This document shows, in pieces, positions 29,520-41,447 of a DNA stretch of 64,000 nt. The position numbers and the translations under genes are program-made. The notes beneath the pieces were generated by a model. It made no database searches, was not told the origin of the DNA, and saw only the letters and a program-made list of their open reading frames with translations. Where the stretch lies: positions 29,556 through 93,555 of the forward strand of contig CAYRQJ010000002.1 in the NCBI GenBank assembly GCA_964426555.1, read 5' to 3'. Positions within the stretch are counted from its first letter, which is position 1, and every line of letters starts with the position of its first letter. The stretch comes from an uncultured Candidatus Saccharibacteria bacterium (GTDB lineage: Bacteria; Patescibacteriota; Minisyncoccia; Phycocordibacterales; UBA9973).

Positions 29520-29622
29520 GAACGTATTATAGCAAACAAATTGCTATTTTGTATATATTTATATTAAAATTAATGTTTGACAATGATCATAAAAATATTG
29601 TATTGTTTTAAAAAACATAGCT

Positions 29623-31781: not shown

Positions 31782-34088
31782 ATGCAAAATCCACACATGC
31801 CCGACATACCAATGAACCGTGATGTTACGTATTTTGCTCGTACTAATTTTCGTGGCGGAAATCAAATTTTTGGTATCAAAAGAAAAGACCGTCGTCAGCA
31901 TATGTATGTGTTGGGTAAATCTGGTACAGGTAAATCAGCTCTACTTTCAAATTTGATTATTCAAAATGTTTGGAATGGTGAAGGTGTATGTGTGGTAGAT
32001 CCACACGGAGAGCTTGTTGAGACTGTATTAAAAATGATTCCTGAACATCGACTAAATGATGTTGTATATTTTAACCCAGCAGATACAGAATACTGTATAG
32101 GATTTAACCCACTTGAACTACCTGATCCAAAATATAAACATTTAGTGGCATCTGGGCTAATGGGAATATTTACAAAAATTTGGGCAAATGTATGGTCGTC
32201 TCGTATGGAATACATTATGAACAATACTATCTTAGCATTGCTTGATACTCCAAATTCAACACTACTGGGAATCCCTAGAATGTTAGTGGACAAAGACTAC
32301 CGTCAAGTGATAATTGAGAACCTGAAAGACCCAATTGTTAAAGCTTTTTGGGTACACGAATACGAACAATGGAAAGAACAATTTCGTAACGAAGCTATTG
32401 CTCCTATTCAAAATAAAGTTGGACAATTTCTTTCGTCTTCCATAATTCGTAATATAGTTGGCCAACAAGAAAGTACAATCGACATCTTCAAAATGATGAA
32501 CGAAGGTAAAATTTTCTTAGTCAATGTATCCAAAGGTAGAATAGGTGAAGATAATTCCGCACTACTTGGTGCAATGATTATTACAAAACTTCAGCTTGCT
32601 GCGATGGAACGTGTTCGTATTCCAGAAGACGAAAGAAGAGATTTTTATTTATACGTAGATGAATTCCAAAACTTTGTTACTGATTCTTTTGCTAGTATTT
32701 TATCTGAAGCTAGAAAATACCGTTTGTGTCTTATACTAGCTCACCAATATACTGCCCAAATCGAAGGTGGTGATAATGATTTAAAAGATGCTGTTTTTGG
32801 GAACGTAGGATCAATGGTTATTTTTCGAATTGGATCAGAAGATGCAAAATTATTTGAAAAAGAATTTGCCCCAGAATTTATTCCAGAAGATTTTGTTGGG
32901 CTACCTAACTACCAAGTATTTTTAAAATTAATGATAGACGGGGTAACTAGTAGACCTTTTTCTGCAAATACTCTTCCACCAATTAGAACAAACATTAGTT
33001 TTGATAGTAGCGCCCGAGCAATAGCAGAGTCAAGAAATACTTATTGCCGACCACAAATCCAAGTTGAAAACAATATTAATGCATGGAGCTCGACTTCTGG
33101 TGGAACCACGGTAGAAGCTAAATCAAACCCAGTTACTGGCGGTAAAATGTACCCAGCTGTATGTGTAAATTGTAATAAAGACATAATGGTTCCTTTTGAA
33201 CCTAAAGACGGAAAACCAATTTATTGTAAAGAATGTTTAAATAAAATCAAAGTTGGCGAATTAAAGCCGAATAAAGGTTATTACGATAAAAATTCAAATT
33301 CTGGCCCTAAACCAGCAGAATCATTAGCTATGCTTGGTATTGAATATGATGATTCTATAATAAATTCCAACAATCGAAATAACAAATCAACAAATTTTGT
33401 CAGAACTGGGAATAGTAGTAGCATGGCAAACAACACAGAACCAACTAAGAAATCTTTTGCTCCTAAAAAAGAACCAGAAGATAGTTATAAAGAAAAATTA
33501 TTAAAAGAAGACCCCGTAAAAAAACAAGATGGCTTTGGGTCTTTGAAAGATTTATTAAATAAAGTAGCTCCAACAAATAAAATCCCTCAAGAAAAACCAG
33601 TTTCAAATAATACTCCTATACAAAATGACCCCAAAAAAATAACCCTGCATTCACATACTATTAAAAAAGAAAACAATTTTCCTGAAACTAACACAATACT
33701 AAAAACAAAAGCTGCTAGCTACGAATCTCAACAAATGTTAAAAAATTTAATTGAAACAACAAAACAAACAGTAAATAATTCACCAGTAGTTAGTACTCCA
33801 ATTCAAAAAACCGAGGAGAAAGAAATTGTGGCAACAAAAGAACCTGAAGCAAAAATTGAAAACAAAAAAATAGTAGAACCTGTAGTTGAAGTTACTGAAA
33901 GAAAAATTGAACATATTGTGGAAGATAAGCCAGAGAATGCTGCTGTACCTAAACCACCAGAATCATACAGTAAAAGAACACCAGCAAAAGAAGTTCCTGA
34001 AGATATTTTAAAGCAGGTTTTAAATGATGAAGAAAAACCAGCCAGTACAAATACTAATGTTAATAGTAACCCAAATATAGACCAATAG
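31782..34088 (+). CDS. Soluble VirD4/TraG (T4CP)-type P-loop ATPase paralog 1, with C-terminal zinc ribbon and long low-complexity tail
   Basis: FGIKRKDRRQHMYVLGKSGTGKS (Walker A), DPHGE, FYLYVDEFQNF (Walker B), EARKYRLCLILAHQY. No TM segments. CVNCNKDIMVPFEPKDGKPIYCKEC at nt 33163-33236, then a K/E/P/N-rich tail. Confidence 0.65.
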   Translation: MQNPHMPDIPMNRDVTYFARTNFRGGNQIFGIKRKDRRQHMYVLGKSGTGKSALLSNLIIQNVWNGEGVCVVDPHGELVETVLKMIPEHRLNDVVYFNPADTEYCIGFNPLELPDPKYKHLVASGLMGIFTKIWANVWSSRMEYIMNNTILALLDTPNSTLLGIPRMLVDKDYRQVIIENLKDPIVKAFWVHEYEQWKEQFRNEAIAPIQNKVGQFLSSSIIRNIVGQQESTIDIFKMMNEGKIFLVNVSKGRIGEDNSALLGAMIITKLQLAAMERVRIPEDERRDFYLYVDEFQNFVTDSFASILSEARKYRLCLILAHQYTAQIEGGDNDLKDAVFGNVGSMVIFRIGSEDAKLFEKEFAPEFIPEDFVGLPNYQVFLKLMIDGVTSRPFSANTLPPIRTNISFDSSARAIAESRNTYCRPQIQVENNINAWSSTSGGTTVEAKSNPVTGGKMYPAVCVNCNKDIMVPFEPKDGKPIYCKECLNKIKVGELKPNKGYYDKNSNSGPKPAESLAMLGIEYDDSIINSNNRNNKSTNFVRTGNSSSMANNTEPTKKSFAPKKEPEDSYKEKLLKEDPVKKQDGFGSLKDLLNKVAPTNKIPQEKPVSNNTPIQNDPKKITLHSHTIKKENNFPETNTILKTKAASYESQQMLKNLIETTKQTVNNSPVVSTPIQKTEEKEIVATKEPEAKIENKKIVEPVVEVTERKIEHIVEDKPENAAVPKPPESYSKRTPAKEVPEDILKQVLNDEEKPASTNTNVNSNPNIDQ

Positions 34089-34089
34089 T

Positions 34090-35226
34090 ATGAAAATTTT
34101 ATTAACCGGAGGCGGAACAGGTGGTCATTTTTATCCGCTTATTGCAATAGCAGAAAGAATAAATACTCTTTCAAGAGAAAAGAAGATTCTTGAAGTTGAT
34201 TTGTATTACATGAGTAATGGAAAATATGACGAAAAATCTTTGACTCAAAATAATATTAGTTTTGTATATGTACCTACAGGTAAATTGCGTTTGTATCCAT
34301 CTATAAAAAATGTTACTGATTCATTTAAAATAGTAACCGGTATTATAACTGCATGTTTTAAAATGTTTTTTATTTACCCAGATGTAGTAATTTCCAAAGG
34401 TGGGCATGGTGCGGTACCAGCATTATTTGCAGCTAGATTACTAAAAATTCCAATTATTATTCATGAATCAGATACTTATCCAGGCCGTACAAATGTATGG
34501 TCAGGAAAATTTGCAAAACTAATTACCTTGGCATATAAAGACAGTAACGAAATTTTTGATAAAAATAAAACTGCAGTTATTGGACTACCTATTCGAAATG
34601 AATTATTACATGTGCCAGCTCCAAGCGATGGAGCAAAATATTACGGGCTGGATGAACATATTCCAACTATTTTTGTATACGCAGGGTCACTGGGAGCTGA
34701 AAAAATTAATAATCTAATCTTAGAATCATTACCCGAATTATTAAAAAGTTATCAAATTATTCATCAGTGTGGTATTAAAAATGAAACAGAAGTAAGAAGT
34801 CGGACAAGTATAATACTGGAAGATCATCCTTATAAAAATCGCTATATTATAAAACCGTTTCTGGATGTAATAGACACCAGGCACGCTGCTGCAATTGCAT
34901 CTCTTGTAATTGCCCGCGGTAATTCAACTTTGTTTGAAGTAGCTGCTTGGAAAATACCAGCAATAGTAATACCTATTACTAAAAGTAACGGCAACCACCA
35001 GCACACTAATGCCGTAGCATTTGTCTCTATGGGAGCAGGAGTACTACTGGAAGAACAAAATGCATTGTCGCATTTATTTATTTCAAAAATTAATGAAATA
35101 TTACTACACCCTGATGTATGGCAAAAAATGCATAACTCTATGAAAGATTTTGGAGATATTGACGCAGCTGTTGAAATAGCTCGTGAAGCCATATTAATAG
35201 GCGAATCTCACGAAATAGACGATTAA
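34090..35226 (+). CDS. murG: MurG-type glycosyltransferase (GT28), UDP-GlcNAc:lipid I transferase
   Basis: MKILLTGGGTGGHFYPLIAIAE, GGHGAVP, IIIHESD, AGSLGAEKIN. Collinear with the MurG motifs GGTGGH, HEQN, GGSQGA. Confidence 0.75.
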   Translation: MKILLTGGGTGGHFYPLIAIAERINTLSREKKILEVDLYYMSNGKYDEKSLTQNNISFVYVPTGKLRLYPSIKNVTDSFKIVTGIITACFKMFFIYPDVVISKGGHGAVPALFAARLLKIPIIIHESDTYPGRTNVWSGKFAKLITLAYKDSNEIFDKNKTAVIGLPIRNELLHVPAPSDGAKYYGLDEHIPTIFVYAGSLGAEKINNLILESLPELLKSYQIIHQCGIKNETEVRSRTSIILEDHPYKNRYIIKPFLDVIDTRHAAAIASLVIARGNSTLFEVAAWKIPAIVIPITKSNGNHQHTNAVAFVSMGAGVLLEEQNALSHLFISKINEILLHPDVWQKMHNSMKDFGDIDAAVEIAREAILIGESHEIDD

Positions 35227-35234
35227 AAAAGATT

Positions 35235-36704
35235 ATGTCTTCATTAAAACCCAATAAAATTCAAATCATCAAATATAGTCCGCCGCCATCAGAACTGCCG
35301 GTTCTTGGTGATATGAATCCATCTGAAGTTTCTTTTATTGGGCGAACAAATTATGCTGCAGCGTTGGAAGAAAAAAGATATGTTTTTGGAATTAAACGAA
35401 TAGACCGAAGACGCCATTTATATATTGTTGGAAAATCTGGGGTTGGAAAATCTAAACTTCAAGAATTAATGATTCGTCAAGATATAGCATATGGTTACGG
35501 TGTATGTGTTATAGACCCGCACGGCGAATTAATTGAAGATATTTTAGAATTTGTACCTGAAGACAGAATCGATGATGTTTGTATTATTGACCCGTCTGAC
35601 GATCAATACCCAGTATCTTTTAATCCACTGGCAAATATTGATAGCGGATTTAAACACCAACTTACTCAAGGTCTTATTGAAGTATTAAAAAAACAATTTG
35701 GATCAAACTGGACACCAAGATTGGAACACGTGTTTCGTTTTACCGTATTGGCGCTACTAGACTACCCATACGCTACAATGCGTGGAATGATTAGTATGCT
35801 GACCGACCGTAACTACCGTCAAAAAGTGGTGGAATACATTGAAGACGACATGGTAAAACGTTTTTGGGCAATTGAATTTGCGGACTGGAGTGAAAAATTT
35901 GATACCGATGCGATTATTCCATTGGTTAATAAGCTGGGACAATTTTTGTCTGACCCAATGTTACGAAACATTTTTGGGCAAATTGAGAACAAAGTTGATT
36001 TAGAAAAATTAATGAATGACAAAAAAATTGTTTTTATTAATTTATCCAAAGGTAAAATTGGGGAAGAAAATTCGTCTTTCTTTGGAGCTATGTTTATTAC
36101 AAAAATTAAACAAGCTGGTATGAGCCGTGCAAAATTAGATAAAGCTGATAGACACGACTTTTATTTATATGTAGACGAGTTTCAAAACCTTGTGACTGAT
36201 ACTTTTGAAAACATTTTATCTGAAGCTCGTAAATATGGACTAAATCTTACTGTTGCTCACCAGTATGTAAACCAACTTTTACCTAAAGTTCAGCAAGCCG
36301 TAATGGGAAATGTTGGGTCAATGATTACGTTTCGTGTTGGTGGAGAAGACGCTGTAAAACTAAAGCCCGAATATGCTCCAATATTTGATGTAAAAGACAT
36401 GATTAATCTTGGGGTAGGGGAATTTTATATTAAAATGACAATAGACGGCGAAAGTTACGACCCATTCTCTGCAGAAACATTAAAAGTTTTACCTCCAACA
36501 CATCCGTCTTATAGAGACAGAATTGTACAAGCATCTCGCGAAAAATATTCTATGCCAGTAGACGAAGTTAAGAAGATTTACGAACAAGAAGAATCTATGA
36601 TTGTTCGTAGTGCGTCTGAAAAAGCCGCAGTTACTCGTAGTAATACTGGTGGTGAATCAAACGATGCTCCCGCAAAGATAGTTGAAAGCGAACCATTAAT
36701 TTAG
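35235..36704 (+). CDS. Soluble VirD4/TraG (T4CP)-type P-loop ATPase paralog 2
   Basis: FGIKRIDRRRHLYIVGKSGVGKS, DPHGE, FYLYVDEFQNL, EARKYGLNLTVAHQY. Paralog of 31782..34088 without the tail. Confidence 0.65.
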   Translation: MSSLKPNKIQIIKYSPPPSELPVLGDMNPSEVSFIGRTNYAAALEEKRYVFGIKRIDRRRHLYIVGKSGVGKSKLQELMIRQDIAYGYGVCVIDPHGELIEDILEFVPEDRIDDVCIIDPSDDQYPVSFNPLANIDSGFKHQLTQGLIEVLKKQFGSNWTPRLEHVFRFTVLALLDYPYATMRGMISMLTDRNYRQKVVEYIEDDMVKRFWAIEFADWSEKFDTDAIIPLVNKLGQFLSDPMLRNIFGQIENKVDLEKLMNDKKIVFINLSKGKIGEENSSFFGAMFITKIKQAGMSRAKLDKADRHDFYLYVDEFQNLVTDTFENILSEARKYGLNLTVAHQYVNQLLPKVQQAVMGNVGSMITFRVGGEDAVKLKPEYAPIFDVKDMINLGVGEFYIKMTIDGESYDPFSAETLKVLPPTHPSYRDRIVQASREKYSMPVDEVKKIYEQEESMIVRSASEKAAVTRSNTGGESNDAPAKIVESEPLI

Positions 36705-36743
36705 CTATTAAAATTTAGTTTATAAAAATACAGAATATACTTT

Positions 36744-38441
36744 ATGAATTCCGAAACCCGAAACTGCCAAAATTGTAAATCTGACTTTGTAATAGAGCCA
36801 GATGATTTTGATTTTTATAGCAAAATTGGCGTACCAGCACCAACATGGTGCCCGGAATGCAGAATGATCCGAAGATTTAATTTTCGTAATGAAAAAATGC
36901 TATTTCGTAGACCAGACGGTTTAACCGGTCAAGACATATTTTCTACGTTTTCTCCTGAATCAGAAGTAACTACTTATGAAAACAACTACTGGTTTGGATC
37001 AGAATGGGATCCAAATATTACAGGAAAAGATTACGATTTTAATAAAACTTTCTTTACACAATTTAAAGATCTTTTAAAAGTTGCTCCAATTCCAGCAAGA
37101 TCTGTATTTAAAATGGTAAATTCTGATTATTGTAATGAGGCTAGTGAATCAAAAAATTGTTATTTATGTTTTAATACAGACTTTATAGAAGATTCTGCTT
37201 ATTTAAGGAAAATTAGACAAGTAAAGAATTCATTTGATTTATATGAATGCGAGAACTGTGAACTTAGCTATGAAGGATTAGTTTTAGATAAATGCTATAG
37301 GACATTTTATTCTTTTGGTTTAGAAAATTGTGTAGATGTATGGTTTTCAAAAAATTTACGAGGATGTACTAATTGTTTTGGTTGCGTAAATTTAGTAAAT
37401 AAATCAAATTGTTATTTTAATGAGCAATTAACCAAGGAAGAATATAATAAAAAAATTAGTGAATTTAATTCTGGGTCATATTTTGAAATTGAACAAATAT
37501 TAAAAAAATCTAAGGAATTTTGGATGAAATTCCCAGTTAAATATAACTACAGTTTAAAGAACATAAATGCAACAGGGGATAGGATATTTAATTCTAAAGA
37601 TATCAAGGATTCATACTATATAAAGAATTCTCAAAATTTAACTTACTGCCAAGATGTTTGGAATAAAAGTTCAGACTGTTACGACTATTCAGTATGGGGG
37701 GACGGAGCACAAAATGTATATGAATCAATGACATGTGGGTTAGGAATTTCAAATATAAAATTTTGTTTTAATTGTTGGGAGAATGAACAAAATTTAGAAT
37801 ATTGTGGATACTGTATTGGTTCAAACGATTGTTTTGGATGTATTGGTTTATACAAAAAACAATATTGCATATTAAATAAACAATATACAAAAGAAGAATA
37901 CTTTGAATTACTTCCCAAAATAAAACAGCATATGATGAATATGCCGTATGTTGATTCAAGTAATAGAGTTTTTAAATATGGTGAATTTTTTCCTTATGAC
38001 ATATCACCTGTAGCTTATAACGAAAGCTTAGCTCAAGATTTTTTTCCACTTAATCCTAATAAAATAATAGAAAACGGTTATCAATATAGAGAGATAAAAA
38101 ATAGAGAATTTGAAAAAACTATTTTAGCTAAAGACATACCAGACAATATAAAGGATTTAAATGAAGATTTTATTAAAGAAATTATTGAATGCGAAAACTG
38201 TACAAAAGCATTTAGAATCATACCAATTGAATTTCAATTCTACAAAAATATAAATATCCCTATTCCTAGAAAATGTCAAGATTGCAGATTTACGGAAAGA
38301 TTTAAATTTGTTACAGTTCCAAAATTTTATAATAGAAATTGTATGAATAACGATTGTAATAATACTTTTATTACGCCATACGCTCCAGATAGGCCAGAAA
38401 TAGTGTACTGTGAAAAGTGTTACCAGCAAGAAATGATTTAA
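36744..38441 (+). CDS. Cysteine-rich protein, paralog 1, with N- and C-terminal zinc-ribbon motifs and internally duplicated Cys modules
   Basis: CQNCKSDFVIEPDDFDFYSKIGVPAPTWCPEC at the N-terminus and CENCTKAFRIIPIEFQFYKNINIPIPRKCQDC near the C-terminus. Many CxxC pairs. No signal peptide. Confidence 0.6.
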   Translation: MNSETRNCQNCKSDFVIEPDDFDFYSKIGVPAPTWCPECRMIRRFNFRNEKMLFRRPDGLTGQDIFSTFSPESEVTTYENNYWFGSEWDPNITGKDYDFNKTFFTQFKDLLKVAPIPARSVFKMVNSDYCNEASESKNCYLCFNTDFIEDSAYLRKIRQVKNSFDLYECENCELSYEGLVLDKCYRTFYSFGLENCVDVWFSKNLRGCTNCFGCVNLVNKSNCYFNEQLTKEEYNKKISEFNSGSYFEIEQILKKSKEFWMKFPVKYNYSLKNINATGDRIFNSKDIKDSYYIKNSQNLTYCQDVWNKSSDCYDYSVWGDGAQNVYESMTCGLGISNIKFCFNCWENEQNLEYCGYCIGSNDCFGCIGLYKKQYCILNKQYTKEEYFELLPKIKQHMMNMPYVDSSNRVFKYGEFFPYDISPVAYNESLAQDFFPLNPNKIIENGYQYREIKNREFEKTILAKDIPDNIKDLNEDFIKEIIECENCTKAFRIIPIEFQFYKNINIPIPRKCQDCRFTERFKFVTVPKFYNRNCMNNDCNNTFITPYAPDRPEIVYCEKCYQQEMI

Positions 38442-38447
38442 TTACTT

Positions 38448-38525
38448 TATGAATTCCGAAACCCGAAACTGCCAAAACCCCAAAGAAAATCATATTTCAT
38501 TGCTTTCTACGGGGCAAACTGTAAA
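38448..38525 (+). pseudogene. Duplicated 5' fragment of the Cys-rich gene (MNSETRNCQ...) ending in an early stop
   Basis: 33 nt at 38445-38477 are identical to 36741-36773, which holds the start of paralog 1. Reading frame decays after 9 codons. Confidence 0.5.
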
Positions 38526-38533
38526 ATAAATAT

Positions 38534-40270
38534 ATGGAGAATAGAGAATGTCAGAATTGTCATAATAATTTCACGATTGAGCCGGATGATTTTGGCTTTT
38601 ACGAAAAAATTGGTGTACCAGTACCAACCTTTTGCCGAATTTGCATGAATCAAAGAAGGCTTTCTTTTCGTAATACTCATTCGTTATACAAAAGAAAAGA
38701 TTCATTTACTGGTAAAGATATAATTACAATATATTCTCCAGACAAAGATTTAACTGTAATGGCACAAAAAGATTGGTGGGGTGACAGTTGGAACGCAATG
38801 GATTATGCACAAGATTATGATTTTTCAAAACCATTTTTTACACAGTGGGATAATTTGCGTAACAATGTTCCTATGCAAAGTTTGTCTAATTCCAAAGCAG
38901 TAAATAGTGACTACTGTAATGTTGCCGAAGAAAGCTACGACTGTTATCTTGTTTCTGCATCATGGCGATGTGAAAGATCAATGTATTGTGATGCAGTAAG
39001 CCAAATTAAAGATACTATGGACTGTCATGTAGTAAACAAGTCTGACTTTTGTTATGACGATGTATTATGCCAATCATCTTACAAGCTTTTCTACAGTCAG
39101 GACTGTCATGCTTGTACAGATTCATATTTCCTATACGACTGCAGTGGTTGTACTGATTGTTTTATGTCTTCAAACTTACGTAACAAAAGTTATTGTTTTA
39201 ATAACGTTCAATTAACTAAAGAAGCTTACAAAGAAAAAATGAGTCAAATAAATTTAGGAAGTTTTGAGACTGTGCAATACTTAAAATCCGAATTTGAAAA
39301 AATGCGTTTAAATTCGTTTCATCGATTTAGTAATACATTAAATTCTGTAAATGTTACAGGTAATAACATTGAGAACGCAAAAAATTGTTATTATGCTTTT
39401 GATGCTTTTGAAGGATTAGAAGATTCTAAATATGTATTTTGGGCTGGGTACAAAGGTAAGGAATTTTTCCATTCTGGTCCAGGAGTAGGGGAAGGTGAAT
39501 TAATGTATGAATGTACTGATTGTGGTATAGGTGGTAACCGTAATTTATTTGCTAACGTAACTTATGGTTGCCAAAATATTGAATACTGTATCAACTGTCA
39601 TAATTCTTCAAATTTGTTTGGTTGTATTGGTTTGCGCAGTAAACAATATTGTATTTTCAACAAACAATATACAAAAGAAGAATGGCTGGAATTAATTCCA
39701 AAAATAAAACAACATATGAATGATATGCCATATATAGACAAAGCTGGTGTTGTTTATAAATACGGGGAATTTTTTCCAATTGAATTATCACATTTTTGTT
39801 ATAACGAAACGGTGGCTATGGACTATTATCCACTTACAAAAGAAGAATGTTTAGCCCGGGGTTATAAATGGAAAGACCCTGAAATAAAAAACTACGTGCC
39901 AACAGTTAAATCTACTGATCTACCTGACGATATTGCAATGGTAGGAGACAACATACTAGGAGATATTATTGAATGTGCTCATAAAGGTGAATGTAGCGAT
40001 AGATGTTCCACTGCATTTAAAATTACTGAAAATGAATTAAATTTTTATAAAAGATTCAACATTCCATTACCAAGACTATGTAACGGTTGCAGACATTATG
40101 AAAGATTACATAAAAGAACTCCTATGGATTTATGGCACAGACAATGTATGTGTAATAAATCAAACCATAATCACAGTAGTCAATGTCCCGTAGAATTTGA
40201 AACCGCATACGCCCCAGACAGACCAGAAATAGTGTACTGTGAAAAATGCTATCAACAAGAAGTAATATAA
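38534..40270 (+). CDS. Cysteine-rich protein, paralog 2
   Basis: CQNCHNNFTIEPDDFGFYEKIGVPVPTFCRIC N-terminus; CSTAFKITENELNFYKRFNIPLPRLCNGC C-terminus. Same C-terminal YAPDRPEIVYCEKCYQQE as paralog 1. Confidence 0.6.
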   Translation: MENRECQNCHNNFTIEPDDFGFYEKIGVPVPTFCRICMNQRRLSFRNTHSLYKRKDSFTGKDIITIYSPDKDLTVMAQKDWWGDSWNAMDYAQDYDFSKPFFTQWDNLRNNVPMQSLSNSKAVNSDYCNVAEESYDCYLVSASWRCERSMYCDAVSQIKDTMDCHVVNKSDFCYDDVLCQSSYKLFYSQDCHACTDSYFLYDCSGCTDCFMSSNLRNKSYCFNNVQLTKEAYKEKMSQINLGSFETVQYLKSEFEKMRLNSFHRFSNTLNSVNVTGNNIENAKNCYYAFDAFEGLEDSKYVFWAGYKGKEFFHSGPGVGEGELMYECTDCGIGGNRNLFANVTYGCQNIEYCINCHNSSNLFGCIGLRSKQYCIFNKQYTKEEWLELIPKIKQHMNDMPYIDKAGVVYKYGEFFPIELSHFCYNETVAMDYYPLTKEECLARGYKWKDPEIKNYVPTVKSTDLPDDIAMVGDNILGDIIECAHKGECSDRCSTAFKITENELNFYKRFNIPLPRLCNGCRHYERLHKRTPMDLWHRQCMCNKSNHNHSSQCPVEFETAYAPDRPEIVYCEKCYQQEVI

Positions 40271-40279
40271 ATCAAAAGA

Positions 40280-40310
40280 AAAAAGCTACAAATACATGTA
40301 GCTTTTAAAA
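40280..40310. terminator. Intrinsic terminator (bidirectional)
   Basis: aaaagctacaaatacatgtagctttt. Confidence 0.6.
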
Positions 40311-40329
40311 AATAAGATTTAGAAATGTT

Positions 40330-40461
40330 TTAAAAAACATCTGTCATAATGCCTTTATCGGCATCATCAAGAGCTTTTTGTCCACCAGGAGTTTGAAAGT
40401 ACAGGATTGCTACTGCTATTACAAGCAGTGCGATTGCGATTTTTTTAAGTAAATTTTTCAT
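40330..40461 (-). CDS. Possible small membrane protein (43 aa) MKNLLKKIAIALLVIAVAILYFQTPGGQKALDDADKGIMTDVF
   Basis: Short ORF with one TM helix, below the track threshold. Lies between two terminators. Confidence 0.25.
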   Translation of the reverse strand: MKNLLKKIAIALLVIAVAILYFQTPGGQKALDDADKGIMTDVF

Positions 40462-40532
40462 ATTGTTATATTGAAAATATTATAACACAATATAATTTAT
40501 TAGCAAACATAGTAGGGTAGTGGTGCAATATA

Positions 40533-40560
40533 AAAACCCTTCAGTAAAATGAAGGGTTTT
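40533..40560. terminator. Intrinsic terminator downstream of rpmA
   Basis: aaaacccttcagtaaaatgaagggtttt. Confidence 0.6.
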
Positions 40561-40568
40561 TATATAAA

Positions 40569-40856
40569 CTATTTAGTTGCAGGTAATACTACATGAACTT
40601 GTTTACGAACAGAAGTTGATCCATCGAAATTGTTTTTTCTTTTGTTAGTAAATTTTACTGTACCATCTTTAAGAGCAAACAATGTGTGGTCACGTCCCAT
40701 ACCTATGTTTTCACCAGGAATGATTTTTGTTCCACGTTGACGAATGATGATGTTTCCTGCAATGACTTTTTCTCCAGCGTATTTTTTAGTACCAAGATAC
40801 TTTGGGTTTGAGTCGTTCAGGTTCTTGGCGCTACCGCCGGCTTTTCTATGTGCCAT
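40569..40856 (-). CDS. rpmA: 50S ribosomal protein L27
   Basis: [44 protein letters not shown] is canonical L27. Confidence 0.9.
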
Positions 40857-40955
40857 ATAATATAATTAAATTTAAACGAATACTACTAAACATTTCGTAA
40901 TACTGGCAGACAGGCAAGCATACTAGATATTTATATTGTATAATAAGGTAACGGT

Positions 40956-41447
40956 ATGAATATAACAGATATTTGGACTAAAATCAAGAGCTTCTTAAAT
41001 TCGAAGACTGGGGAACTGGTAATCATTTTATTAGTATTAATAGCTTCTAATATTGCTAGCTTCTATATTGGTAAAAATACAGGTAATACCCCAAACAATG
41101 ACAATTCTAGTAGTGAATATGCTCAAATTAAAACTAATGACTATAGTTTAGCTGACCCAGTTTACAAGGCTGGATCTTTTGCTATGGCAGCTTATAAAAG
41201 CTCTAAAACTGCCCCACAAAGCCCTGAAATAGCCCAAAATGGGGAAGTAGCAGTCAATACTACAAATAGCGGGAATATTACCACCAATCCCCGCTATGTA
41301 GCCAGTAAGAATGGCCGGGTCTACTACTATACTTGGTGCTCGGGTGCTAAAAATATTAAAGACGACATGCGTAGATATTTTAATTCTGGGGCTGACGCTA
41401 GGGCAGCGGGATATACACCATCCAAAGCTTGCGCTGGGCTGGATTAG
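40956..41447 (+). CDS. Membrane-anchored protein with C-terminal Ada-like metal-binding domain
   Basis: TM helix (LVIILLVLIASNIASFYI). C-terminus YYYTWCSGAKNIKDDMRRYFNSGADARAAGYTPSKAC resembles the Ada N-terminal Zn-binding module. Confidence 0.4.
   Translation: MNITDIWTKIKSFLNSKTGELVIILLVLIASNIASFYIGKNTGNTPNNDNSSSEYAQIKTNDYSLADPVYKAGSFAMAAYKSSKTAPQSPEIAQNGEVAVNTTNSGNITTNPRYVASKNGRVYYYTWCSGAKNIKDDMRRYFNSGADARAAGYTPSKACAGLD

Follow-up and report, generated by a model that had tools for sequence, protein, structure and literature searches.

Beta-helices of 12-residue coils wound around a cysteine core are otherwise known from insect antifreeze proteins, which are secreted and disulfide-bonded; in that of Tenebrio molitor (PDB 1ezg) the repeat is TCTxSxxCxxAx. 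In Xanthomonas, the X-Tfe effectors of a type IV secretion system (T4SS) carry a conserved C-terminal domain that interacts with the coupling ATPase VirD4. [quoted passage not shown] Across 2,918 Patescibacteria genomes, a survey counted 5,713 homologues of the VirD4-like type IV coupling protein (T4CP), only 148 of them near virB4, and its authors left another function open for these homologues (PMC12102498). Here, we describe two tandem genes, p1 and p2, in a 64,000-nucleotide stretch of DNA (the window: positions 29,556 to 93,555, forward strand, of contig CAYRQJ010000002.1, assembly GCA_964426555.1) from an uncultured Candidatus Saccharibacteria bacterium. Their cysteine-rich products are predicted to join two 12-residue-coil beta-helices to zinc-finger units at both ends, and the genes lie downstream of those for two soluble VirD4-like ATPases, one short (ATPs) and one long (ATPl). 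Fingers of the treble-clef type, beta-solenoids and ATPases of the coupling-protein type are known kinds of component; the whole protein, its scale in such small genomes and the pairing with the soluble ATPases appear to be undescribed.

The two products are paralogues, 41% identical from end to end (E 3e-150), as a first-pass annotation of the window had proposed; the two open reading frames (ORFs) are present in the span it gave, and all the peptides it quoted were located in p1 or p2. Strong purifying selection acts on the p1/p2 genes, with a dN/dS of ~0.09 between p1 and its orthologue in the closest relative (locus L088) over 565 codons without gaps, and the ORFs are real genes; antisense ORFs within p1 (63-90 aa) have no support. 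The N-terminal ribbon C8xxC11-x24-C36xxC39 recurs at residues 483-514, 82 aa before the end of p1. Both CFGC...N.Q.TKEEY blocks belong to p1 (residues 211-234 and 363-386), and the C-terminal tail YAPDRPEIVYCEKCYQQE is common to p1 and p2. In profile-profile alignment (hhalign), both internal duplications, of the terminal ribbons (probability 98.3%, E 1.3e-14) and of the central modules A and B (98.0%, E 2.9e-13), stand far above chance, which bears out the pseudo-symmetry that had been claimed. The cysteine content had been overestimated: where 55-60 per protein were claimed, p1 has 33 (5.8%) and p2 has 37 (6.4%). Their description as mostly CxxC pairs suits p1, in which 23 of the 33 lie in 12 CxxC motifs, and does not suit p2 (17 of 37, nine motifs). 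Judged by hydropathy, neither protein has a transmembrane (TM) or signal-like segment, the maximum Kyte-Doolittle 19-residue mean being 1.56 among the 212 full-length family members, from 83 loci plus the window, that make up our conservation alignment. This supports the cytoplasmic location first suggested.

Each end of the protein carries a two-finger unit, in which a CxxC-x24-CxxC ribbon is followed by a CxxC-x17-CxxC-type finger. The N ribbon cysteines are 98-100% conserved, and all twelve terminal ligand cysteines 91-100%. The ligands are lost or kept as whole sites, with phi values of 0.92-1.0 for positions 61/79/82 and 486/511/514. The N-terminal finger, at positions 58/61/79/82, is an exact CxxC-x17-CxxC in 84 of the 212 relatives and is degenerate in p1 and p2. 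The C-terminal finger keeps the spacing in p1 as C538-x17-C556xxC559, behind a first ligand pair that is C-x4-C in p1 and C-x12-C in p2. Because of this ligand pattern, the conservation, the all-or-none covariation and the domain homology set out below, the termini are predicted to hold structural Zn(Cys)4-type sites. Three would be present in p1 and p2, and a fourth in the 84 relatives whose N finger is intact. Conserved arginines follow the fingers (R40, R43, R44, R515 and R519).

The nearest named families are zf_Tbcl (PF13451), TIGR04272 and zf_Tbcl_2 (PF23477), with which the proteins share the ligand spacings CxxC-x24-CxxC and (C-x2/4-C)-x17-CxxC. PF13451 matches p1 at E 0.002 (18.5 bits, under the gathering score of 24), gives no match in p2, and is matched at E < 0.01 by 15 of 50 homologues (best 2.4e-6). 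PF23477 is matched by two of the 50, and neither TIGR04272 nor any other NCBIfam model matched p1 or p2 at a threshold as loose as E <= 10. In the ribbon, two CxxC pairs lie ~24 residues apart and the second starts a helix in the structure model, as in the treble clef of zf_Tbcl; the ribbon is a divergent, borderline zf_Tbcl relative rather than a scored member. The two family fingers align with each other (N against C, hhalign 98%, E 5e-14), and the finger of ATPl aligns with both (97%, E 1e-10 for the N finger; 95%, E 2e-8 for the C finger). The likeness extends from sub-threshold to significant HMM matches in part of the family and to profile-profile probabilities of 95-98% with the bona fide TIGR04272 finger of ATPl. 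The differences are that the two finger types here form a unit at both ends of a 570-aa protein, that p1 and p2 stay under the curated cut-offs, and that both have lost the N finger ligands. LIM domains gave E values of only 0.05-0.2, to CRP LIM domains over residues 511-563, and no Pfam LIM match.

Between the terminal units, ~20 cysteines are placed at every third residue. In module A all cysteine columns fall in one phase, and the Fourier peak corresponds to a period of exactly 3.00 residues. Small or aliphatic residues make up 88% of phase-1 positions (Cys alone 31%, Cys and Ser together 52%), and the other two phases contain 0% Cys. In a 12-residue register, the coil consensus is [CS]-[YF]-[YF]-[SC]-x-[ND]-[CLA]-x-[NG]-[CS]-[EK]-[ND]. 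The central modules are predicted to be two tight beta-helices with 12 residues per coil and every third residue facing inward. A left-handed hexapeptide beta-helix was ruled out, as the period is 3 and not 2 or 6. The central cysteine columns are merely 12-72% Cys and do not covary (phi <= 0.39, against 0.92-1.0 at the zinc sites). Because they are freely replaced by Ser and by aliphatic and other residues (Val, Leu, Ile, Thr, Ala) in this uncorrelated way, most central cysteines look like core-packing residues, not ligands; a disulfide-bonded core was likewise ruled out, there being no Cys covariation at i/i+6. The term multi-metal-site protein, used in the first-pass annotation, is an overstatement, as conservation and covariation support just the three putative Zn(Cys)4 sites in p1 and p2.

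The last coil of module A behaves otherwise. C205, C208, C211 and C214 are conserved at 71, 92, 97 and 85% and fill all four inward positions, where one more metal could be bound, and the module B counterparts C366 (95%) and C375 (87%) are conserved as well. A ferredoxin-type 4Fe-4S site of the form CxxCxxCxxxCP is not seen, since the next cysteine after C208xxC211xxC214 comes at +9 and is 46% conserved, and neither Fer4 nor any other Fe-S Pfam model matches p1, p2 or the 50 homologues scanned.

Among described proteins, the closest in coil geometry is the Tenebrio antifreeze protein, in which a small residue at every third position likewise lines the narrow core of 12-residue coils. The likeness is one of fold type, not membership. 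The family has no sequence homology to it, is cytoplasmic rather than secreted, with no signal-like segment, lacks the TxT ice-binding face and the covarying cysteine pairs that would mark disulfides, and embeds two such modules in a larger protein. A predicted cytoplasmic 12-residue-coil beta-helix with a Cys/Ser core and treble-clef caps at both ends is of structural interest in itself. Bactofilins, pentapeptide-repeat proteins and curli-type beta-solenoids share the repetitive solenoid body; here the repeat is 12 residues with a 3-residue inner period, the ends carry zinc-finger caps, and the core is Cys/Ser where theirs is hydrophobic or Asn/Gln. No HMM of these families matched p1, p2 or 50 homologues.

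The full-length AlphaFold2 model of p1, built from 50 sequences (pLDDT 82, pTM 0.85), is confident at the ends and over residues 380-565. Residues 387-478 probably pack on the protein body, since they fold poorly when modelled alone (pTM 0.43); they gave no fold match, and Foldseek found no PDB match for the p1 model as a whole.

The second line of evidence is gene linkage. Members of the ATPase family occur near family genes in 39 of 83 loci, the next commonest neighbour family in 17. Counted within ~10 kb, an ATPase accompanies 34 of the 79 species-representative loci, against a random expectation of ~4% by our own estimate for two genes placed randomly in a genome of ~0.8-1 Mb (one complete chromosome measures 808 kb). 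Reciprocally, four ATPs homologues were taken with a long contig as the sole criterion: in three, family genes follow <=7.5 kb downstream, and in the other the ATPase pair stands by itself. Family genes form tandem arrays of 2-10 genes in the 83 loci and the window (ten in L030, nine in L075, eight in L019 and L047), and a single metagenome-assembled genome (MAG) carries 12 copies or more, spread over the loci L049 and L063. The typical order on one strand is s-C...C-L or L-C...C-s, where s is ATPs, C a cysteine-rich gene and L ATPl. In the window, L21-ATPl-MurG-ATPs-p1-p2 follow one another along the + strand, separated by 61, 1, 8, 39 and 92 nt. Terminator-like sites on the + strand between 31000 and 40270 lie only inside the L21 gene (31443) and the ATPl gene (32559); none is intergenic from L21 to p2 before 40281, where a hairpin probably ends the operon (Table 1).

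Both ATPases are P-loop proteins of the VirD4/TraD/TrwB clade with the domains DUF87, TrwB_AAD_bind and TraG-D_C. They are ~45% identical to each other and have no TM segment or membrane anchor, and the Walker A motif lies around residue 64 (ATPs) or residue 42 (ATPl); TraD/VirD4 NCBIfam matches to ATPs all stay under the cut-off. ATPs is strongly conserved, its top 120 homologues being 78-98% identical, well above the level of the cysteine-rich family. The CxxC-x17-CxxC finger separates the two ATPases, as it occurs in 26 of 31 ATPl homologues and in 0 of 29 ATPs homologues. Behind the finger, these 26 have a K/E/P-rich tail whose length varies between 99 and 534 aa; in the ATPl of the window, the region from the finger on (residues 461-768, 33162-34088) includes a low-complexity tail of ~280 aa. 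Two loci, L051 and L064, hold another coupling-protein homologue (790-801 aa) with an N-terminal TM segment, Walker A near residue 400 and no finger, which looks like the canonical T4CP and distinct from the soluble pair. Against phages, tblastn of ATPs found only hypothetical proteins of 22-28% identity, mainly from Bacillus phages.

Table 1. Features of the window, in window coordinates, with the strand where one applies
Feature	Position	Strand	Remarks
ATPl, long soluble T4CP-like ATPase, 768 aa	31782..34088	+	TrwB_AAD_bind and zf_Tbcl_2; K/E/P/N-rich tail
ATPl CxxC-x17-CxxC finger, residues 461-485	33162-33236	+	TIGR04272, E 1.6e-13, 50.1 bits (cut-off 36)
ATPs, short soluble T4CP/VirD4-like ATPase, 489 aa	35235..36704	+	39 nt upstream of p1; DUF87, T4SS-DNA_transf, TrwB_AAD_bind, TraG-D_C
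35-nt exact direct repeat, copy 1	36738..36772	+	leader and first 29 nt of p1
p1, 565 aa	36744..38441	+	ORF; cysteine-rich family, similarity cluster A; identical protein in database
p1 N-terminal treble-clef ribbon	36744..36899	+	C8xxC11-x24-C36xxC39, then basic helix (R40, R43, R44)
p1 degenerate second finger, residues 53-92	36900..37019	+	ligand positions 58/61/79/82 are D/T/E/Y
p1 predicted beta-helix module A, residues 125-234	37116..37445	+	~8.5 coils of 12 residues, Cys/Ser core; ends in C208-x2-C211-x2-C214 and N.Q.TKEEY cap
p1 predicted beta-helix module B, residues 263-386	37530..37901	+	duplicate of A (hhalign 98.0%, E 2.9e-13)
p1 conserved region, residues 387-478	37902..38177	+	YGEFFP...YNE...G.W motif; pLDDT >90 in full-length model
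p1 C-terminal ribbon and finger	38178..38438	+	C483/486/511/514; C-x4-C-x17-CxxC at C533/538/556/559
35-nt exact direct repeat, copy 2	38443..38477	+	directly after p1 stop; opens a 25-codon dead-end ORF
p2, 578 aa	38534..40270	+	ORF; similarity cluster B; architecture as p1; family HMM score 767 bits
Palindromic hairpin after p2 stop	40281..40306		likely bidirectional terminator, operon end

The family is large. A word-indexed search returned more than 7,391 homologues of p1, all named ones being 'hypothetical' and all named sources Patescibacteria (Paceibacterota, Nomurabacteria, Gracilibacteria and 'Patescibacteria group'); with identical proteins excluded, the top homologues are 52-81% identical. 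Searched exhaustively with HMMER, 1.84 billion cluster representatives (50% identity) yielded 4,685 clusters at E <= 1e-3, 3,486 at <= 1e-10 and 2,036 at <= 1e-30. The best 150 clusters show nearly all a single architecture of 550-600 aa, besides truncated entries and one possible 731-aa fusion, and the N-terminal 120 aa as query returned truncated fragments of the same family only and no other architecture. In species-representative genomes, at least 579 stretches encode relatives; the 79 loci retained are all Patescibacteria-labelled or from unlabelled MAGs, in a sample that is biased toward p1 relatives and in which many MAG labels are generic. No Pfam, NCBIfam or PADLOC model spans the whole of p1 or p2. 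Searches of the PDB by single sequence and by profile gave chance-level or weak LIM-like matches and no related PDB protein. The earlier view that the proteins fit no named family holds for the whole length and gives way at the termini, which can be placed beside zf_Tbcl and the CxxC-x17-CxxC domain. Relatives were absent from 50,697 phage records (tblastn of p1) and from an IMG/VR scan; one weak match, to phrog_15341, was also seen. No published description of the family was found, nor does its name or pattern come up in the main text of a metatranscriptome study of Paceibacteria.

The paralogues of an array are old, and the set of them is changeable. The best identity within a locus has a median of 44%, against 61% for the best match in other species. 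The closest relative, L088 (1-9282), aligns with window positions 35159-40988 at 79% nucleotide identity over ATPs and p1. In L088, the interval from p1 to L27 is taken up by a 180-aa Ser_hydrolase-like gene and a different paralogue, only 42% identical to p2. This different gene set after p1 implies that array content turns over between close relatives. A trace of such turnover may lie in the 35-nt direct repeat of Table 1, which is probably a recombination scar between conserved paralogue 5' ends. Alternatively, the copy number of p1 could vary in the population; a public Logan contig of 1,730 bp has its two ends within the two copies, a pattern that fits a loop in an assembly graph built with k=31. 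In L084 (11524-11697), a called 57-aa gene directly after the ATPs homologue matches the N ribbon only (HMM 3-40, E 2e-16). It is what remains of a truncated copy, comparable to the 35-nt remnant of the window, and likewise looks like a recombination scar.

We tentatively propose that the family supplies interchangeable cytoplasmic clients or adaptors of the ATPase pair; the interaction, the role and a handled substrate are what we infer here. Each protein would form a stiff cytoplasmic body of two homologous beta-helices with a two-finger unit at both ends, and would work with both adjacent, co-transcribed, soluble ATPases, which are of the VirD4/TraD-like hexameric type. Because ATPl carries the CxxC-x17-CxxC finger too, ahead of its flexible tail, this finger may be a common docking module, through which ATPase and family protein would bind one shared partner or one another. 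The divergent paralogues would lend the motor pair different specificities, with the variable surfaces of the helices supplying them.

A bolder extension, which we consider rather unlikely, is that the arrays and the soluble ATPase pair constitute an unrecognised non-T4SS machine, so far seen in Patescibacteria only. A near-invariant core of two motors would then load, move or assemble exchangeable rigid rods through zinc-finger docking. If true, this could give these ultra-small episymbionts a novel means of handling macromolecules or of building a cell structure, and it would assign a function to the roughly two orphan T4CP homologues per genome.

Either way, the steady linkage gives the soluble VirD4-like ATPases a concrete set of candidate partners. 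The roughly two T4CP homologues per genome in the survey cited above fit the ATPs/ATPl pair; if these are the survey's orphan homologues, the linkage bears on their function. The Patescibacteria are a sizeable part of bacterial diversity, and their genomes are tiny, one complete chromosome measuring 808 kb; even so, the 1.7-kb gene is present in some of them at 12 copies or more, ~2% of the genome (own estimate). Thousands of sequence clusters in the family have no annotation and no structural relative that has been solved.

Several observations weigh against the client-or-adaptor proposal. One locus, L085, has the ATPase pair and no family gene within 10 kb, and many family genes stand in arrays or as singletons away from ATPases; a Gracilibacteria-labelled copy lies among Prim-Pol and DUF2326 genes with no ATPase. 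Part of the synteny may reflect a conserved housekeeping neighbourhood, as rplU, murG, dnaK and dnaJ are nearby. AlphaFold2 confidence in the two central helices is 52-71. The proteins are mildly acidic (pI ~5.2-6.2) and their ribbons carry +2 to +4. Finally, C208, C211 and C214 could be the ligands of an additional metal or Fe-S site, for which the model has no explanation.

The relationship to VirD4/TraD/TrwB systems bears on a first alternative, in which the proteins are secreted cargo: an effector repertoire that the ATPases would recognise by its conserved C-terminal unit and pass to the Patescibacteria T4SS for delivery to the host cell. As with X-Tfe effectors, an ATPase gene of this clade adjoins several proteins with conserved terminal modules, the C terminus being strongly conserved, and the variable copy number and the turnover of array content between close relatives would suit effectors. 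T4SSs are also reported to be important for epibiotic growth in Patescibacteria (PMC12102498). In contrast to coupling proteins, ATPs and ATPl are a soluble, conserved pair without the membrane anchor, which the separate T4CPs of L051 and L064 do have; no T4SS gene, channel genes included, occurs among the 22 window proteins scanned or beside the arrays. The T4SS channel needs unfolded substrates, and Zn(Cys)4 modules, three to four per protein and tightly folded, would be awkward cargo. The family proteins lack toxin and enzyme domains, no small partner gene of an immunity-like kind was found, the finger is common to motor and client, and the proteins evolve slowly for effectors, with orthologues 55-80% identical across species and the low dN/dS given above. 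Secreted cargo is thus unlikely.

Incidental linkage seems to us quite unlikely as well. It would make the family independent zinc-finger proteins, nucleic-acid-binding or regulatory, that share only a housekeeping synteny with the ATPases. The treble-clef fingers followed by conserved arginines, the many family loci without an ATPase and the recurrence of housekeeping neighbours are what it would predict. It sits poorly with the ATPase family being by far the commonest neighbour (39 loci against <=17), with the same strand and short gaps, with a finger type common to the family and ATPl, and with N-ribbon remnants that adjoin cluster genes, ATPs in the case of L084 and p1 in that of the window. 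The proteins are, moreover, acidic overall, and with the low charge of the ribbons this gives no indication of strong nucleic-acid binding.

Constant domain lengths raise the possibility of a structural polymer, in which rods of several paralogues would use their finger units to join up lengthwise or laterally into a cytoplasmic filament or scaffold, with the ATPases as assembly and disassembly motors. Module A spans 104-111 aa and module B 115-126 aa in paralogues at 30-45% identity, both ends bear the same two-finger unit, and two paralogous ATPases recall assembly/retraction pairs. A copy number from 1 to at least 12 and a paralogue set that differs between close relatives make a poor fit to a fixed multi-subunit structure, however, and to our knowledge no polymerisation motor is known among ATPases of the T4CP type; we regard a polymer as very unlikely. 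Least probable of all is the multi-metal protein of the first-pass annotation, if taken to serve metal storage, buffering or redox/Fe-S chemistry with most cysteines as ligands: the 33-37 cysteines per protein, the CxxCxxCxxC of C205/208/211/214 on one coil (71-97% conserved) and the CutA1 (divalent-cation tolerance) and Nramp neighbours in nine and three loci speak for it, but the central cysteines are substituted without covariation, cysteine at ~6% of residues is far under metallothionein-like levels, no Fe-S Pfam model matches, and storage would leave a dozen ancient fixed-length paralogues and the ATPase link unexplained.

A mobile element or defence island was considered and rejected, as the neighbourhood consists of housekeeping genes; PADLOC defence models gave nothing for p1 or p2 and only weak mad8/HerA matches for the ATPases. 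The ribosomal genes rplU (L21, 31403-31720, +) and rpmA (L27, 40569-40856, -), which are usually adjacent, are here ~9 kb apart with ATPl-MurG-ATPs-p1-p2 between them, and L21 lies within ~6 kb of the arrays in six further loci (L005, L032, L050, L052, L064 and L066). Between ATPs and the first cysteine-rich gene there is often a CutA1 gene (nine loci) or a small cytidylyltransferase-like gene (seven), for example at L004 7281-8017, L085 11553-11858 and L086 11467-11886. A lamin-tail-domain (LTD) protein is encoded downstream of ATPl in L002, L004 and L085, and an Nramp metal transporter directly upstream of ATPs in three loci. The 731-aa entry, P0407, has a GNAT-like N-terminal extension of ~180 aa; it is a single case, either a fusion or a merged gene call, and half of the Cys ligands are gone in both of its ribbons (CEIS...CPEE). 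Beyond L27, a 163-aa ORF (40956-41447, +) combines an N-terminal hydrophobic segment with a C-terminal ...YYYTWCSG...AGYTPSKAC and has no Pfam or NCBIfam match. Between p2 and L27, a hydrophobic ORF of ~43 aa lies on the minus strand (40300-40480), and its equivalent in L088 (5597-5728, -) is a called gene.

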